A stretch of 64,000 nt of DNA from Thermoanaerobaculia bacterium (GCA_963664405.1 OY761158.1:6304001-6368000), one strand, 5' to 3'; positions 33,671 to 41,625 are shown, counted from the first letter of the stretch. The notes: generated by a model not told the origin, from the letters alone. A program made the numbers and translations.

Positions 33671-35604
33671 CTCTCGCTGTCTCTGTCTTATCGAACGCGG
33701 AGTCGCGCTTAGAATAGGAAGCCCACTTTGAGGCGAAACTCCCGCGTGGTCTGGTAAGAACCGATCGTGTTGGGGGGCAGGCCGTTGGAGCGGGTGACAA
33801 CTGCTTGTTCCTGCTCGTCGGTGATGTTGGCGACCTCGAACCCGAGCTGGCCGCTGAACTTCCCGCCAACTGGGAATTCCCACATGGCGTTCACGTTGAG
33901 GGTGAAGAGCTCCTCGAGAGTATTCGCGTCGATCGGCTCGCGGGCCGTCGAGGTATTGATCCTCTGACCGGACACCGGGGGCGGATTCAACTGGTCGTCG
34001 CAACATCTCGTGATGGAGGTGTTTCGATGGGAGTTGGCAAGTGTCAGGGTGCGATTCGAGCGATGCGTGGCCAGATGCGGTCACCTGGCCGGCCCTCGAC
34101 AGCGCGGCGCGAGGACCGGATCCGGTTCTGGGAGACGATCGCTCGTGGGGCGTCCAGCGAGGACGCCGCAACAGAGGCTGGGGTGTCGCCGGCTGTCGGG
34201 TCGAGATGGTTCAGGCAAGCTGGTGGAATGCGACCTATCTCGTTGGCTCCGGTGTCGGGGCGTTATCTGTCGTTCGCCGAGCGTGAAGAGATCGCCATCC
34301 TTCACGCTCAGCATGTTGGGGTACGTGAGATCGCTCGCCGCCTGGGTCGTTCACCGTCGACGATTTCGCGGGAGCTGCGCCGCAACGCGGCGACTCGCAG
34401 CCGTGCCGTAACTTATCGGGCCACGACTGCGCAGTGGCACGCAGAGCGGCGCGCCAGCCGTCCGAAGGTCTCCAAGCTTGCCGCGAACGATGCCTTGCGT
34501 GAGTACGTGCAGAACCGCCTCGCCGGCGTGATCGCAAGGCCTGACGGGGAGCTGGTGCCGGGTCCGGATGTGCGTTGGATCGGCCGTCGGCACGGCCGTC
34601 GCCAGGATCGGCGTTGGGCGAAATCCTGGAGTCCGGAGCAGATCTCGAACCGGCTTCGGATTGATTTCCCCCATAATGAGTCGATGCGGATCTCTCACGA
34701 GGCGATCTACCAAGCGCTCTACATCCAAGGTCGAGGAGCCCTCAAACGCGAGCTCGTCGCGTGCCTGCGAACCGGGCGAGCGCTACGAGTGCCGCATGCG
34801 CGAACCCGGGGGAGAGGCAAGAAATTTGTAACTCCGGAGATCATGATCAGCGAACGCCCCGCCGAAGCCGGCGACAGGGCCGTGCCGGGTCACTGGGAAG
34901 GCGACCTGATCGTCGGGCTCGAGAGCTCAGCGATCGGGACCCTCGTCGAACGCACTACGCGGTTCACGATGCTGCTGCACCTGCCCCGCATGGAAGGGCA
35001 CGGGACCGAATCGAGGGTGAAGAACGGGCCGGCCCTCGCCGGGCACGGCGCCGAAGCCGTCCGTGACGCGATCGCGGTGTCAATCACCACGCTGCCCGAG
35101 CAGCTCCGCCGGTCCTTGACCTGGGACCAGGGCGCCGAGATGGCTCAACACGCTCAACTCCGCGTCGATACCGGCCTCGCGATCTACTTCTGCGACCCGC
35201 ACAGCCCCTGGCAGCGGGGCACCAACGAGAACACCAACGGACTACTGTTGATGGCTGCGAGCAAGCGCATCCCGTTGGCTGCGAGCGCAGTTTCCGGGAT
35301 GGAGTGAGCTGAGGGCTTCGCGACCGCGGGAAAGCTAGGCCTTCTTCAGGAAGGGCGGCATCATCCCGCCGGAACGGCGGTCCGGGTGCGTGGTCCCGGC
35401 GGCGTGTTTGCGGTCGGAAGAGATGCGTGAGTCGGTGTAGGGCTTTGCAGTGCGGGCTCTGCTCTGATAGAGCAGGCCGACCAGAGACGGCGAGAGCCCG
35501 GGAAAGCGAAGTAGAAAACGCCCCGGGCTCTGCCCCAAACCGCAGCATTAGCTGCGCTTGCAGTATGGCAGAGAGTCGGGGTCGTCGTCGAATGGGAGGC
35601 GACG

Positions 35605-36000
35605 ATGCGACCGGACTACCGACTCTTCGACTGTGCTCGATGCCGTCGGCGTATCTCGCTGTGCTCGCACTGTGACCGTGGCCAGCGTTACTGCCGGGCT
35701 TGTGCTCTGGTGGCTCGTCGGGAATCGACTCGGGCGGCCGGCCATCGGTACCAGCGAAGCCTCCGAGGTCGGCATTGTCATGCCGCCCGTCAGGCCCGCT
35801 ACCGTCGGCGCCAGCGCGAGCGGGCAGAGAAAGTGACGCATCAGGGTACCCCAGGCGGTACTTCGGGGAGGACACTGTGTCGGATCGAGACTCCGAGGCG
35901 CGAAGTGCGCTACGACCCGAGGAATCCGCGATGCATGCAGTGTGGAGAGGCCTGCCGAGAGTTTGTGCGAACGAGCTTTCGTCGTTGCCGACGGAGATAG
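35605..36000 (+). CDS. Cys-rich (Zn-finger-like) IS21 accessory protein
   Basis: CARC, CSHCDRGQRYC, CMQC; directly upstream of istA. Confidence 0.7.
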   Translation: MRPDYRLFDCARCRRRISLCSHCDRGQRYCRACALVARRESTRAAGHRYQRSLRGRHCHAARQARYRRRQRERAEKVTHQGTPGGTSGRTLCRIETPRREVRYDPRNPRCMQCGEACREFVRTSFRRCRRR

Positions 36001-36687
36001 GGGCGTGATCGACGCACAGCTGCGCGGGGAGATCCGTCGTCTGTTCCTGGTCGAGAAGTGGAAAGTCGGCACGATCGCTCGACAGCTACAGCTGCACCCC
36101 TCAACCGTGCGCCGGGCGCTGGAGAAGTCCGGCGTGCTACCCCAGCAGCGACGAGGGAGGATGATCGATCCTTACCTGCCGTTCATCGAGCAGGTGCTCG
36201 GGACCTACCCACGACTGCCGGCGAGCCGTCTCTACACCATGGTGGTGGAGCGCGGCTATCCAGGAGGCCCGGATCAGTTTCGCCACCTGGTGGCCTCGAT
36301 GCGACCGAAGCCCCAGCGCGAGGCGTTTCTCTCGCTGCGCATGCTGCCAGGAGAGCAGGCGCAGGTCGACTGGGGCCACTTCGGTCGGCTCCGCGTCGGC
36401 CGGGCACATCGTCGGCTCTATGCCTTCGTCTTCGTGCTGTCGTTCTCGCGCACGGTCTTCGTGCACTTCACCCTCGACACTCGTCTCGAAACCTTCTTGC
36501 ACGCTCACCAGCTGGCCTTCCACTACGTCGACGGCGTCGTCAGGACCGTTCTGTACGACAACCTGCGAACCGCGGTGATCGAGCGGCAGGGAACCGCGGT
36601 GCGCTTCCATCCCGTGCTGCTCGATTTCGCCAGCCACTACGGCTTCCTTCCCACCGTCGCCGCGGTGGCTCGGGGAAATGAGAAGGG

Positions 36688-38781
36688 CTACGCTTCACAC
36701 TGCACCTCCTCCGTAGGGTTCGGTTCGACGTCGAGGCGGCGCCGTCGTTTCGAGAGTTTTCGGCCCTGCATTTTGACGGGCGGGTCGTCGCCGGGATGCT
36801 CGTAGAGGCACTCGTTCTTGTCGTTGTAGGCATGGGCACGCAGCAGGCCGTGGTTGCGCCATGTCTTCACCGTGTGGGTCGCGACACCCAGTAGGTCAGC
36901 CATCTCTTCGAGGGTAAGCATTCCCCCCTCACGCAGTCGGTCGTACCTCTTCTTGATGTCGTAGTCACGGCGCAGTCGCCGGACGATGCCGGCGTGAAAT
37001 CGTTTGCCCTCTCCGGAGAGATGGCCTCTGTCGTTGAGGATGCTCGCAATCTCGGCCTCGGTGTAGTCATCAAGCAGGGTATCAATCTCGGCAACGACCT
37101 GTTTCGAGGTTTGGCGTAACTCCCATGCTGTCGGCGGAATGGGCAGTTTGAGACTTCGTGTCGCGCCACCTCGGAAGCGGACACCGACAACGATCTCGTC
37201 GCCCTTCGTCAAGGTGACGTCCTCGATGAGCAAGCGCACCATGCGCTTGCGCTCGCGTTGAGGCGTCTTCGGGTCGTTCCACAACCGCGGGAAGTCGGTG
37301 GCGAGGGCGAGGATCTCTTCTCGTTGCTGGTCGCCGAGCTGTTGGTGATCTTGCTGGCGGCGCTGCTCGAGCTCCTCCTGTGCGTCGTGCAGCCCGCGCA
37401 GCCTCTCGTTCCACTCGGCCTCGAGGACATCCACCACGAGGCGGTTCCCCGGATCGACCTCCATGAAGCGACGCCGAGCCAAGTCAGCCTCCTGTCGAGC
37501 TCGCTGTACGTGCTGGCGCCGCAGGGAATCGGCCTCGTGGATCCGTGCATCGAGCTCGACCTGGACTTTCAGTGCAACCTCCAGAGTCACAGGCGTAACC
37601 GTCTCCACAAGCAGCTCTCCGATGGCCCGATCGATGCCCTTGCCCGGGATCGACTGACACTTGGGTGTCGCGGTGTCGATGCCCTCGCGCTGGCAGACGT
37701 ACTCGGGCCACTGAGTGCCCCTGCGCGTGTGATAGCGGACCGTCATCCGATGGCCACAAACGCCGCAGAGGACCAAGCCCTGCACCAGCGCTGGCCCCTC
37801 GCGCGGTGGGCTCTTGCGCCGGTCTCGGCCGTGGGCCTGGGCGTTGTCTCGTAGTCGTCTCAGGTTTTCTTCGAATTGTTCCCAGGGAATGTATCCGGGG
37901 TGCGCGTCGAGCAACAGCGCGGTCCACTCCTCCCGCGGAAGCGACTTGACCTCGACGGTGCCGTTGACGCGCCTTTGCGTGTGAGTGCGACCGAAACAGA
38001 AAGCGCCAGCGTAGCGGGGATTGTGCAGCACCCTCAGGACGCGCCAGTGGCGCAACGACTCCCACAACAGCTCTCCCTTGTGGGGGCCGAAGCGCGGCCG
38101 GCGCGGAAACCGCAAGCCTTGCTCGCGGAAGTGTTTGACCGTCGCCGAGGCCGAGCCCATACGCTCGAAGGTCTCGAACAGGTGCTCGAAGCTCCGTTGG
38201 ACCTGGCCGTCGGGATCGAGCACCACGTTACCGGTCGGGTCGTAGAGTAGGCCGACGGGTAACGGGGTTTGCAGCGCACCTCGGCGCGCCTGATTCAGAA
38301 TGCCTCCGCGCAGCCGAGCCCGCATCACGTGAAGCTCCGCCTCGCTCATCGTGCCCTTGAGCCCGAGCAGAAGGCGATCGTTGAAATCACTCGGGCTGTA
38401 GACCCCGTCCTCGTCAAGGATCAGCGTGTCGGTCAGCGCGCAGATCTCCAGCAGTCGATGCCAGTCCGTGCTATTGCGTGCCAGGCGCGAAACCTCCAGC
38501 CCGAGAACGATCCCGGCTCGGCCCATACCGACCTCGCCGACGAGCTTCTGAAAGCCCTCGCGGTCGACGCTGGAAGCTGCGGACTTACCCAGGTCCGAGT
38601 CGATCACGATGACTCGCTCGATGGGCCATCCCATCGCCACCGCGCGCTCTCGCAACGCGTACTGGCGTCTCGTGCTCTCCGTATTCTCGAACACCTGGCG
38701 CACGGTCGACTGGCGAACATACAGGTACGCATCGCGTCGCAGGTGGCTTGGGGTCACCTTCTGGTGGGCGCTTGCGCTCAT
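36688..38781 (-). CDS. Large serine recombinase (resolvase, recombinase and Zn-ribbon domains)
   Basis: YVRQST, DLGKSA, EVSRLARN, LHNPRYAG, CGVCG, YVC; stop codon overlaps the att core. Confidence 0.93.
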   Translation of the reverse strand: MSASAHQKVTPSHLRRDAYLYVRQSTVRQVFENTESTRRQYALRERAVAMGWPIERVIVIDSDLGKSAASSVDREGFQKLVGEVGMGRAGIVLGLEVSRLARNSTDWHRLLEICALTDTLILDEDGVYSPSDFNDRLLLGLKGTMSEAELHVMRARLRGGILNQARRGALQTPLPVGLLYDPTGNVVLDPDGQVQRSFEHLFETFERMGSASATVKHFREQGLRFPRRPRFGPHKGELLWESLRHWRVLRVLHNPRYAGAFCFGRTHTQRRVNGTVEVKSLPREEWTALLLDAHPGYIPWEQFEENLRRLRDNAQAHGRDRRKSPPREGPALVQGLVLCGVCGHRMTVRYHTRRGTQWPEYVCQREGIDTATPKCQSIPGKGIDRAIGELLVETVTPVTLEVALKVQVELDARIHEADSLRRQHVQRARQEADLARRRFMEVDPGNRLVVDVLEAEWNERLRGLHDAQEELEQRRQQDHQQLGDQQREEILALATDFPRLWNDPKTPQRERKRMVRLLIEDVTLTKGDEIVVGVRFRGGATRSLKLPIPPTAWELRQTSKQVVAEIDTLLDDYTEAEIASILNDRGHLSGEGKRFHAGIVRRLRRDYDIKKRYDRLREGGMLTLEEMADLLGVATHTVKTWRNHGLLRAHAYNDKNECLYEHPGDDPPVKMQGRKLSKRRRRLDVEPNPTEEVQCEA

Positions 38782-39065
38782 GCGTGGTTCTCCTCTAGAT
38801 GGCTGAGAGCCATGGCGGCCAGCACGTTGATCAGATCCGCGCTCGTATCGTGAGGCAGTGCGGACGGCCTGGCTATCTCGGCGGACGGTGCCGGGGTCGG
38901 CGCGGGCATCTTGGACCCCTGTTCAACCCAAGCGGCCAGCCCTTGTCGCAGGAGAACGGCCAAGCCGAACCGAACCGATAGGAGCTGCCGCTTCGCCGCA
39001 TGTCCTCGGAGCTCCTCGTAGCGAGCGACATGGGCCGGAGCGTTCTGCTGGCGTGTCGCGCTCAT
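38778..39065 (-). CDS. Small hypothetical protein of the recombinase element
   Basis: ATGA-coupled on both sides; RYEELR...GLAVLLRQGLAAW. Confidence 0.75.
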   Translation of the reverse strand: MSATRQQNAPAHVARYEELRGHAAKRQLLSVRFGLAVLLRQGLAAWVEQGSKMPAPTPAPSAEIARPSALPHDTSADLINVLAAMALSHLEENHA

Positions 39066-39529
39066 GGCCGGCGTTTTTTTTCCTGGCGAGCCAGGGCTCG
39101 CTCAATGCTGCGCGGATGGATCGAGATGCCAAAGCGCTTCTGCACCCACTCGACCAGGGCGGTTGCATCTGCGTCCGGCTCCCCCTCCAGCCTGTCGTGC
39201 AGGGCCTCGACGACCTCCTCGGATAGCTTGTGGGCGCGGCGCGGCCCCGGCTTTCTTGGCAGCAACGCGGGTAGGCCGCCTTCTTCGTAAACCACCTGGG
39301 CGTGGTAGAAGGATGGGCGCGACAACCCGAAGCTTGCCGCGCTCCGGCTCACCGTGTGTCTGTCCACCCGGACACGGCGCAGCATCTCGTACTTGACCTG
39401 CACGAGGTCTCGAGGGTCGAAGAACTCGCTCGAGGTGAACAAATCGTCCGAGACCTTCTCCGGCTGGGGATGAAGGCACCCTCGTTGACGGAGGGCCTCG
39501 GCTTTCGGGTCGGGTCTGCGTCGCGGCAT
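39062..39529 (-). CDS. HTH protein of the recombinase element
   Basis: FFDPRDLVQVKYEMLR, FGLSRPSFY, SIHPRSIERAL; GAGGAG RBS. Confidence 0.8.
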   Translation of the reverse strand: MPRRRPDPKAEALRQRGCLHPQPEKVSDDLFTSSEFFDPRDLVQVKYEMLRRVRVDRHTVSRSAASFGLSRPSFYHAQVVYEEGGLPALLPRKPGPRRAHKLSEEVVEALHDRLEGEPDADATALVEWVQKRFGISIHPRSIERALARQEKKRRP

Positions 39530-39554
39530 GGTCTCCTCATGGAATGTAATTCTA

Positions 39555-39582
39555 ATTATGCCTTTCATGGATCCTCTGTCAA
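39555..39582 (-). promoter_or_regulatory. Putative sigma70 promoter TTGACA-N16-CATAAT for the HTH-small ORF-recombinase operon
   Basis: Perfect -35 and 5/6 -10 in an AT-rich intergenic gap. Confidence 0.65.
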
Positions 39583-39741
39583 GGGGTGTCCACCAAGAGA
39601 GTACCGATAGATCGTGCATTAAATTGGCCTATCTCTACACTCCTGGTCACACTCTGGCACTCTTCCCGACATAATTGTGATTACATTCACGGCATAATCT
39701 CCTTTACGCACGGTGCCCCTCAACCGTCCTCGCGCAGCTCT

Positions 39742-40040
39742 TCATCGCTCGCTCTCCCGGGTCAGCTTGGCGAGCTCGAGCAGGTCGGCCAAGCGGTACA
39801 TCGATCTGCCTGCGGAGAGGACAACCACGGGGTCCTCGGCCACCGCACTCGTCCAACGCGCTGGAAGGGAGCGTAGCTCCTCGCATTCATCCAGGTAGAA
39901 GACCCGGTCCTCGCCCCAGCACTGGCGATAGTGAGCCAGCTCGTACTCACGCCCCAACAGCGGGTGGAACGGATGGGTTACCCGAAAACGTCGTTGCTCA
40001 CAATCTGTATCGGGTGCATTCGACCATTGAGCCCAAAGGC
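39742..40040 (-). CDS. DUF5372 (Y4bD/Y4pK)-like protein; N-terminus cut at the att site
   Basis: FRVTHPFHPL, SLPARWT, RLADLLEL; the frame runs across the element boundary. Confidence 0.75.
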
Positions 40041-40830
40041 CGCGTCGAGCGCGCAATCCGCTTCCTGCGAAGCTCGTTCTTCGGCGCCCGAACGGTGAGC
40101 GATTTGGATCGTCTGAATCGGCAGGTCCTGGAATGGTGCCAGAGGTCGCAGCGCAGACCCTGGCCGCAGGACCGACAGCGAACCGTGAAAAGCGCCCTGG
40201 CCCAGGAACGACCTCGACTGCTTGAGCTTCCCGGAGACGACTTCGAAACCGACCTGCGACTGGAGATCAAGGTCAGAAAGACGCCGATCGTGCGCTTCGA
40301 CCTCAACGACTACTCGGTGCCGCACAGTCATGTGCAGAGGACCGTCACGCTCCTCGCCAGCGAGCATCGGGTGCGGATCCTCGATGGCCAGGAGCTCCTC
40401 GCCGAGCACCCTCGCTCGTACTCCCGGGGCGAGCAGATCCTCGATCCTCAACACCTCGAGGAGCTCCTCGCTCACAAACGCAGGGCCCGACGACACCGGG
40501 GCTTCCATCGGCTGTTTTCCGCTGTGCCTCGATGCGAAGAGCTGATGCAGCAGCTCGCCGAGCGAGGCGAGAACCTCGGAACGCAGACCGCCGGCCTGCT
40601 CCGACTCCTGCGCCAGTACGGCCCCCAGCGACTCGACAAAGCCGTGCGCGAAGCGCTCCTGAACCACGCACCGCGATTCCAGTCCGTCCGGCTCCTACTC
40701 GAACGGCACCAGCGCGGCCTCGGTCAGCCCCCGGCTTTACCGGTGCCGCTCAGCCAGGAGCTCCAACAGCGAGATCTCTCCGTGAGACCGCACAACCTCG
40801 AGGACTACGACCAACTTGGAGGCAACGACG

Positions 40831-41625
40831 ATGGCCCGACCCAGGAAGAGTCCAACGATCCCTGACGAACCACTACGAGAGCTCGCCCGATCCCTCGGCT
40901 TCTACGCCCTCGTCGACGACTGGGGCACCTACCGAGAACAGCCCTGGCTCGAACAGCTGCTGCGCAAAGAAGAGGCCGAGCGCAAACGGCGCAGCCTCGA
41001 ACGGCGCATCCGCACCAGCCGCGTCGGGCTCTTCAAGAGCATCGCCGACTTCGACTTCTCCTGGCCCCAGCGCATCGACCGCGAGCAGATCCAGGATCTG
41101 CTCACCCTCCAATTCCTCGACGACATCACCAACGTCATCCTCCTCGGACCCAACGGTGTCGGCAAGACCATGATTGCCAAGAACCTCCTCTACCAGGCGC
41201 TGCAACGAGGGGCCACCGCCAGCTTCGTCACCGCCTCCGACATGCTCAACGATCTCGCCGTCCAGGAAACCCCCTCGGCGCTCCAGAGAAGGCTCTCCAA
41301 ATACACCCGACCCTCGCTTTTGGCAATCGATGAGCTCGGCTATCTCTCCTACGACCACCGCCACGCGGATCTCCTCTTCGAGGTCGTCTCCAGGAGATAC
41401 GGCAACAAGCCCATTCTTCTCACCACCAACAAGCCCTTCGCCGAATGGGCCGAGGTCTTTCCCAACGCCTCCTGCGTCGTCACTCTCGTCGATCGACTCA
41501 CCCACCACGCCGAGATCGTCAAGATCGAGGCTAACTCCTATCGCCGCAAGGAGGCCAAGGAGGCTGCTGAAAAAAAGGCCAAGGACCGCGCCAAAAGGCG
41601 GAGCGCAGCACGACGACGCTCATGA
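40831..41625 (+). CDS. istB: IstB ATPase
   Basis: GPNGVGKT, LAIDELGY, TTNKPF, DRLTHH. Confidence 0.93.
   Translation: MARPRKSPTIPDEPLRELARSLGFYALVDDWGTYREQPWLEQLLRKEEAERKRRSLERRIRTSRVGLFKSIADFDFSWPQRIDREQIQDLLTLQFLDDITNVILLGPNGVGKTMIAKNLLYQALQRGATASFVTASDMLNDLAVQETPSALQRRLSKYTRPSLLAIDELGYLSYDHRHADLLFEVVSRRYGNKPILLTTNKPFAEWAEVFPNASCVVTLVDRLTHHAEIVKIEANSYRRKEAKEAAEKKAKDRAKRRSAARRRS

Follow-up and report, generated by a model that had tools for sequence, protein, structure and literature searches.

The subject of this study is a 64,000-nucleotide stretch of DNA from a Thermoanaerobaculia bacterium (GCA_963664405.1 OY761158.1:6304001-6368000; hereafter the window, numbered on one strand from its first letter). 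Within the window, an IS21 istA gene on the plus strand, recognized by its rve and Mu-transposase C-terminal domains, was found to be interrupted by an insert of 3.35 kb carrying four genes, all of them on the minus strand. These encode a protein of the DUF5372 family, a helix-turn-helix (HTH) protein, the product of a small open reading frame (ORF) and a large serine recombinase. Comparison of the insert with its relatives indicates that the DUF5372 gene is probably complete only in an excised, circular form of the element. Its product is most likely a partner of the recombinase. The integrated gene body has no start codon of its own; the Shine-Dalgarno (SD) sequence and start codon that would serve it lie at the opposite end of the element, and this predicted split of the gene across the attachment site of the circle (attP) is conserved over many phyla. 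A preliminary description of the stretch had proposed a circle-specific gene at this place, an interpretation that the sequence comparisons reported here support.

The insert and the gene that it interrupts comprise the following features.

36685-40034, minus strand: mobile element proper, 3350 bp, or 3352 bp with one AA core
39742-40035, minus strand: DUF5372 gene body, from codon 6 to the stop, without a start of its own (PF17342, 1.9e-20)
36696-36712, minus strand: SD sequence GGAGGAGGT (36712-36704), 5-nt spacer and GTG start codon (36698-36696), then four codons to the core
36688-38781, minus strand: large serine recombinase of 697 aa with an extra C-terminal HTH (Pfam and PHROG matches)
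38778-39065, minus strand: orf95, a small ORF of 95 aa of no known family, its ends overlapping both neighboring genes
39062-39529, minus strand: HTH protein of 155 aa (Pfam HTH_32/29/28)
39555-39582, minus strand: sigma-70-like promoter of the HTH-orf-recombinase operon, TTGACA-16-CATAAT, 11 of 12 consensus matches
35942-36684, plus strand: 5' part of istA (rve domain, Pfam 1.3e-08)
40035-40865, plus strand: 3' part of istA, which picks up at the catalytic K-G-R-V-E-R motif (Mu-transpos_C_2, 6.2e-24, in the frame of the rebuilt target)
40054-40056, minus strand: host-derived in-frame TTG on the antisense strand of istA, the start given by the ORF finder in the window copy

The minus-strand frame 39742-40056 matched DUF5372 (PF17342) with 73.1 bits against a cut-off of 25, over model positions 1-73 of 78. 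Three features named in the preliminary description were recovered: the DUF5372-like frame overruns the right boundary of the element; the promoter occupies 39555-39582 on the minus strand, downstream of the DUF5372 frame and pointing away from it; and the SD sequence, spacer and GTG lie at the positions listed above. Both GGAGGAGGT and the GTG of the DUF5372 gene fall within the recombinase gene (36688-38781), at its 3' end. The recombinase contains, within one protein, the resolvase catalytic (Resolvase PF00239, 2.5e-17), recombinase (Recombinase PF07508, 1.9e-11) and zinc beta-ribbon (Zn_ribbon_recom PF13408, 2.2e-07) domains that characterize large serine recombinases, together with HTH_17/MerR_1, and it matched a PHROG integrase at 3.4e-49.

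The ends of the element were located by comparison of its copies and empty sites in its own genome (one contig, 6.78 Mb) and by a check of public sequencing runs, for which four of the 24 runs found were used, all of them stored as assembled contigs. The own genome contains five copies of the element with 98-100% identity, in all of which the four frames are open, and at least 22 sites at which both istA flanks are contiguous, i.e., empty. The five copies are alike only from AA to AA, with differing flanks. In all seven of the empty IS21 sites that were read, the target is uninterrupted and has AA followed by A, where attL, the left junction of the integrated element, has G. Contigs from all four public runs join 36682 to 40035 with 3352 bases skipped, and the element's own contigs in these runs end at 36683 and 40036. 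Because of these empty sites, copy flanks and contig joints, the crossover was placed at the following dinucleotides, between which lie the two arms of attP (all unstranded).

36683-36684: attL crossover dinucleotide AA, common to target and element (empty sites, copies, contig joint)
40035-40036: attR crossover dinucleotide AA, at the right junction (empty sites, copies, contig joint)
36685-36706: attP arm on the recombinase side, with an AGCCC-type inner motif adjoining the core and, 16 nt away from it, TGCA at 36701-36704
40013-40034: attP arm on the DUF5372 side, with TGCA at 40015-40018, 16 nt from the core

The attP site is thus an imperfect inverted repeat, with a 5-bp palindrome beside the core and TGCA 16 nt out on each side. 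Exchange at the 2-bp core is conservative and leaves no target duplication, AA being present once in the empty site and once in each junction. The GGC triplets that had been taken for the crossover cores (36686-36688 and 40038-40040) do exist, yet GGGC at 36685-36688 is element DNA, and GGC as a core was ruled out by the empty sites, the copy comparison and the contig joints. This shift also alters a detail of the joined gene: as had been described, the ends join in frame to give a protein of 102 aa, but with the AA core its codon 5 is CCT (Pro) rather than CTT (Leu). With regard to the other copies, one (L002, C1:3059611-3063084 of the own genome) is flanked on the left by an IS3-like gene (G-D-C-W-D) and on the right by IS21 sequence, with no reciprocal copy, which suggests a deletion or rearrangement via recombination between two element copies. 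Three bases are inserted directly ahead of the HTH start codon (window 39530) in three of the five copies (L002, L004, L005) and in the contigs of three of the four runs.

Related loci numbered 160 in all, 80 from genomes, with one genome per species, and 80 from metagenomes, which served as the replication set. The circle junction of each was made in silico by joining the ends at the crossover, and the motif on the recombinase side was called at a threshold of at least 12 of 15 positions. The gene order DUF5372 > HTH > orf > recombinase was found throughout, with the HTH gene downstream of DUF5372 in 144 of the 150 loci that had room for it. The elements have the make-up of a pNGR234a-type insertion sequence, i.e., four genes on one strand, a length of ~3.3 kb and GGTGCA..TT att arms. 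A conserved block at the recombinase end, rGA-GGTGCAGT-[A/G]TG-N11-CC-TT, was detected in 45 of the 53 genome loci having the recombinase stop. The start codon that it contains (ATG in 23 loci, GTG in 22) lies at a fixed distance of 16 nt from the core and is preceded by an SD-like motif in all 45. On in-silico circularization, a frame of 101-114 aa runs through the DUF5372 domain in 44 of these 45 loci, the exception being L064, in which the recombinase is in two pieces and the joined frame is closed after 3 codons. The metagenome loci with both ends gave a start in 33 of 33, an SD-like motif in 30 of 33 and a joined frame of at least 95 aa in 33 of 33; over both sets, the joined DUF5372 frames measured 99-114 aa. 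The preliminary description had looked to just such in-silico circularization of DUF5372 and recombinase loci for a recurrent SD and start in frame; the arrangement recurs in 44/45 and 33/33 related loci and is thus more than chance.

The linker between the att core and the domain differed by whole codons, measuring 60 nt in 64 loci, 57 nt in five and 69 nt in two, and was out of frame in 1 of 77 (L053); six other loci were mis-anchored or left unscored, five of the values being mis-anchored. In L053 the distance from att arm to domain is 61 nt, a 1-nt offset, and its 110-aa joined frame, which came from a mis-anchored join, was kept in the counts; this locus may be a frameshifted copy or contain a sequencing error. 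When the eight genome loci without the motif at threshold were inspected by eye, L035 and L084 showed a variant with ATG at the same distance and L074 had CAG followed by TTG, while none was seen in L079, L086 and L089-L091. Among the 160 loci, no same-family recombinase was found directly upstream of DUF5372, as in a circle or tandem form; in L051 and L135 a distant recombinase (32-37% identity) occurs further upstream of DUF5372.

We also surveyed the start codons available to DUF5372 in the integrated state. In the window copy, the stretch from the core to the domain contains no ATG, GTG or TTG, and the Val codon ahead of the domain is GTA; in this copy and in L002, both with an IS21 right flank, the antisense strand supplies an in-frame TTG. 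In the copies L003, L004 and L005, which lie in other transposase genes, the frame is closed by a stop 6-10 codons upstream, and the conserved domain is preceded by no ATG, GTG or TTG. The earlier proposal that integration silences the gene fits three of the five copies in the own genome, which are startless; in the window copy, where the host TTG at 40056 leaves the frame open, silencing would not be absolute. Between the upstream stop and the domain, the 81 genome loci showed no start in 40, a host-derived start in 21 and an in-element start in 13, with seven undetermined; the corresponding numbers for the 80 metagenome loci were 33, 17, 18 and 11, with one off the contig. When the Val codon that opens the domain was counted too, 18 of 65 genome and 19 of 66 metagenome determinable loci had no canonical start, and this codon, as an SD-less GTG, was the sole start in 13 more loci of each set. 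GTG occurred there in 40 of 124 distinct loci, as compared with 43 of 109 at another conserved Val, and an SD-like motif preceded it in 1 of the 40. A selected internal start at the Val codon was rejected because GTG is not enriched and an SD-like motif is so rare. The gene calls in databases were scattered: of 120 proteins fetched, 108 bore the motif, and their N-termini were placed just ahead of S-N-A-P-D in 53, at the domain in 22 and anywhere in the others.

The promoter is conserved in the -35 and -10 elements in all 16 aligned relatives. Since this full, conserved promoter lies inside the element, no promoter formed at the joint is needed. Operator-like repeats flank or overlap it (39540-39720), in the form TGTAA-N6-ATTATGCC and, inverted, GGCATAAT-N5-TTACA. 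The 16 aligned relatives retain these repeats, to which the HTH protein may bind. NCBIfam matches that fall far short of the cut-off (IS630, 2.8e-11; IS481, 7e-08) liken this protein to the DNA-binding N-terminus of IS630 and IS481 transposases. The product of orf95 is kept in relatives and had no match in Pfam, PHROG or NCBIfam.

Several lines of evidence support DUF5372 as a real gene. Its members across phyla have 45-87% identity to the window protein with the frame open, 18 residues are invariant across 33 sequences, and the family comprises at least 340 clusters. Nearly all of the 81 loci examined keep this frame open; premature stops occur only in L031 and L078, and L084 was mis-anchored. 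A pseudogene was rejected on the strength of the invariant residues and open frames. The AlphaFold model of DUF5372 is a small beta-barrel with a C-terminal helix (predicted local distance difference test, pLDDT, 75.1). When the PDB was searched with this model by Foldseek, nothing matched at E <= 0.001; the nearest likenesses were the small beta-barrels of ribosomal protein eS4 and NdhS (template modelling scores of 0.34-0.40), from which no function was drawn. DUF5372 was also without a match in PHROGs and NCBIfam.

To look for a partner, DUF5372 was modelled in complex with the recombinase from alignments built in this analysis. The complex scored 0.68, 0.68 and 0.69, as against 0.00 for the best of three controls, and the score mark used is one that 58 of 80 solved complexes and 2 of 110 mismatched pairs reach. 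The runs share at least 67% of contacts, with a partner pLDDT of at least 68; the model supports binding of DUF5372 to the recombinase. The modelled interface involves recombinase residues 338-343, 394-413 and 482-541, which, by Pfam limits and sequence, correspond to the zinc knuckle, to the stretch in which the two coiled-coil helices emerge from the zinc-ribbon domain, and to that domain's last hairpin. DUF5372 is therefore most likely, as far as the model goes, a recombinase partner at the junction of zinc ribbon and coiled coil. According to the part of the literature source used here, the place at which phage directionality factors exert their effect on large serine integrases is the junction between zinc-ribbon domain (DBD2) and coiled coil (PMC12286644). 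Because the modelled site is where directionality factors bind, we read DUF5372 as a directionality-type partner.

The explanation that we favor for these observations is as follows. The element would be a transposon of insertion-sequence size (3352 bp) that a large serine recombinase mobilizes by way of an excised circle, with crossover at 2 bp, AA, and with its attP placed in codons 5-6 of its fourth gene, DUF5372. In the chromosomal state, the promoter, HTH gene, orf95 and recombinase gene form an intact operon, with DUF5372 stranded upstream of that promoter and deprived of its ribosome-binding site, start codon and first five codons, which lie 3.3 kb away in and just past the 3' end of the recombinase gene. 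Excision would join the ends and so make DUF5372 the last cistron of the operon, its start overlapping the recombinase stop, and re-integration would take the gene apart again, limiting synthesis of the protein to the circle. There, DUF5372 would set or lock the direction of recombination, most plausibly by favoring integration or by blocking the reverse reaction.

Several points weigh against this explanation. The start and SD sequence sit within the attP arm and, in the closest relatives, also within conserved recombinase codons (E-V-Q-C-E-A), so that their conservation cannot in full be counted as separate evidence for translation, and the fixed 16-nt spacing could reflect att geometry. Some integrated copies do possess starts: a host-derived one in 21 genome and 17 metagenome loci, the window copy included, an in-element TTG or GTG before the domain in 13/81 and 18/80, and GTG at the domain-opening Val codon in about a third of distinct loci (40/124). 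A circle-type N-terminus was found in none of the 108 database DUF5372 proteins bearing the motif. In the models, the first 20 residues of DUF5372 are disordered and outside the recombinase interface, and an internally started product might still work. Finally, no back-joint, i.e., circle junction, was present in the assembled contigs of the four public runs, although such contigs drop rare forms and this result speaks neither for nor against a circle. It could be argued on these grounds that conservation of the SD and start is a by-product of the att site and the recombinase C-terminus, and that DUF5372 is translated from integrated copies, starting at TTG codon 9, at the GTG of the domain-opening Val, at near-cognate codons or at starts supplied by the target. 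We consider this unlikely. The mirrored arm on the DUF5372 side has GGTGCAGT too, but an SD-like motif in only 3 and a start in 0 of 61 distinct arms, whereas the arm on the recombinase side, with the GGTGCAGT block in 37 distinct arms, has both in 37/37; att-site symmetry is therefore not the explanation. The SD is retained where the att block is altered from GGTGCA (to AGTGCA, AGCGCA or GATGCA), the preceding bases still yielding GGAG. The recombinase stop, for its part, lies at +20, +8, +1, -11, -20, -26 or -50 nt relative to the junction start, which is thus retained even with the stop 11 to 50 nt upstream; given this variation, the conserved junction start is not explained by recombinase coding. 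As for the internal starts, the GTG at the Val codon has the background frequency and scarcity of SD motifs given above, and the 18/65 and 19/66 loci without any canonical start keep the frame intact. That DUF5372 might instead be a decaying remnant, joined in frame by chance, would account for the many integrated copies without a start and the heterogeneous N-termini of the called proteins; we regard it as highly improbable in the face of the nearly universal open frame, the 18 invariant residues, the size of the family (at least 340 clusters) and the in-frame joins in 44/45 and 33/33 loci.

A further alternative accepts the split and differs in the sign of its effect. The product might be a classical recombination directionality factor (RDF): a rare first circle would make the factor, which would act in trans on other integrated copies and cause a burst of excision, with integration resuming once the protein decays. 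Such a course would suit the modelled binding site, which is that of known RDFs, the five intact copies in the genome and the flanks of L002, derived from two insertion sequences as inter-copy recombination would give. However, if the circle produced an inhibitor of attP x attB recombination, it would prevent its own integration and, being non-replicating, would be lost; the first excision would be left unexplained; and, by analogy with junction promoters, circle-specific functions would be expected to serve integration. A classical excision-driving RDF made only after excision is indeed hard to rationalize, a difficulty that also touches our own reading of DUF5372 as a directionality-type partner. 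We judge the burst of excision to be not very likely. Proper synthesis of DUF5372 from the circle only would favor a role in the integration step or in blocking its reversal. Returning to the circle-specific recombinase partner that we prefer, its fullest form is a switch that senses the recombination state, in which excision assembles and integration dismantles the gene of a directionality partner, and the circle alone makes a factor that commits it to integration or prevents reversal. This fullest form we put forward tentatively, as a possibility that falls somewhat short of being probable.

The sites into which the elements insert were examined by rebuilding the empty target for the 42 loci with both flanks. 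In 27 of these (in the window and among loci L015-L088) the strand antisense to the element encodes the motif [N/K]-[G/A/P]-x-[V/A/I/L]-E-x of IS21-, IS3-, IS481- or Mu-like transposase genes, the Asn or Lys codon opening with the AA core, and all five copies in the own genome sit in transposase genes. In transposases of the rve family, this motif holds the catalytic Glu of the DDE triad. Insertion into the catalytic codons of other transposases would make the element a parasite of parasites, able to inactivate insertion sequences. Other targets were seen as well: in L029-L033, from Spirochaetia, an HNH-like motif (A-A-V-K-R-Q-V-W-Q-R-D-G-G-R-C-S-Y), and in L056, L058 and L068 an IS110-like E-A-T-G-V-Y-W motif, where the core is AT and not TT. 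In the window, a 500-aa frame at 33805-35307, upstream of the IS21 copy, is transposase-like judging by its translation alone. The element was often encountered as a stand-alone contig of 3.3-3.6 kb bounded by the crossover (L014, L035, L084, L101, L105, L124, L126, L128, L138 and others), because a multi-copy element breaks assemblies at its ends, which hides its context from annotation. The family is common yet barely annotated, with gene callers assigning arbitrary N-termini to DUF5372 and assemblies breaking at the ends of the element.

Large serine recombinases are prized in that a single small partner protein controls their direction. To our knowledge, direction control is poorly understood in those of the transposon type. 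If our explanation is true, a partner gene coupled to the recombination state, expressed in the circle alone and taken apart by integration, would be a simple means of such control, new among large serine recombinases, and would amount to a self-erasing genetic circuit. DUF5372 would then be a new candidate class of recombinase partner for synthetic biology.

A related four-gene unit was found on the Sinorhizobium fredii NGR234 plasmid pNGR234a (NC_000914.2, ~33.9-37.3 kb). It has genes for DUF5372, an HTH protein, a small ORF and a "recombinase family protein" in the same order, the motif at the recombinase end with GTG 16 nt from a TT core, an in-frame join, and a flank antisense to a K-G-R-V-E-R motif. 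It differs in that its DUF5372 protein is ~45% identical to that of the window and that the record annotates the start at an internal GTG. We believe this unit to be the one named NGRIS-4. Searches of the literature returned no publication on DUF5372 or NGRIS-4 and nothing relevant under y4bA, y4pH, y4bD or y4pK; NGRRS-1 was found cited in two papers only. Nor did they return an account of such a split gene, within a coverage that did not extend to the 1997 work of Perret et al., which may describe the family; the preliminary description's view that the arrangement is undescribed for this family fits these searches. The assembly of a gene or promoter by circularization and the location of att sites inside genes are already known ideas. 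What appears to be new, no description of it having been found, is a gene for a recombinase partner whose body is parted from its start codon and ribosome-binding site.

Among known systems, Lyras and Rood are said to have reported in 2000 that the joined ends of Tn4451/Tn4453, which encode the large resolvase TnpX, form a promoter for the recombinase gene. More generally, junction promoters that form in circular transposition intermediates work for the integration step, which in turn destroys them. Tn4451/Tn4453 resemble the present element as large-serine-recombinase transposons that move through a circle and in which the joining of ends switches on an element function; there, however, the joint is the promoter, whereas here the promoter is internal and the joint would build the coding sequence and ribosome-binding site of a small protein. 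The archaeal integrase gene of SSV1 type is split by integration. Like DUF5372, it is whole only in the circular form, but the split gene encodes a tyrosine recombinase, not a small putative partner of a serine recombinase. In mycobacteriophage BPs, whose immunity depends on integration, as set out in the portion of the source drawn on here, attP lies within the repressor gene, the integrase is of the tyrosine type and the prophage makes a shorter, stable protein (PMC4557955). Integrated and free forms thus encode different products in BPs as they would here, although in BPs it is the 3' end of the repressor gene that is exchanged, whereas in the present element the 5' end, with all translation signals, is removed. 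The closest functional parallel that we draw is with the RDFs of serine integrases, to which DUF5372 is similar, in so far as they are treated in the excerpt of the source used, in being small, having no conserved fold and, by modelling, sitting on the junction of DBD2 and the coiled coil (PMC12286644). In the same excerpt, known RDFs are expressed from the prophage in its integrated state and set off excision, whereas the DUF5372 gene would be properly readable only after excision has taken place (PMC12286644).

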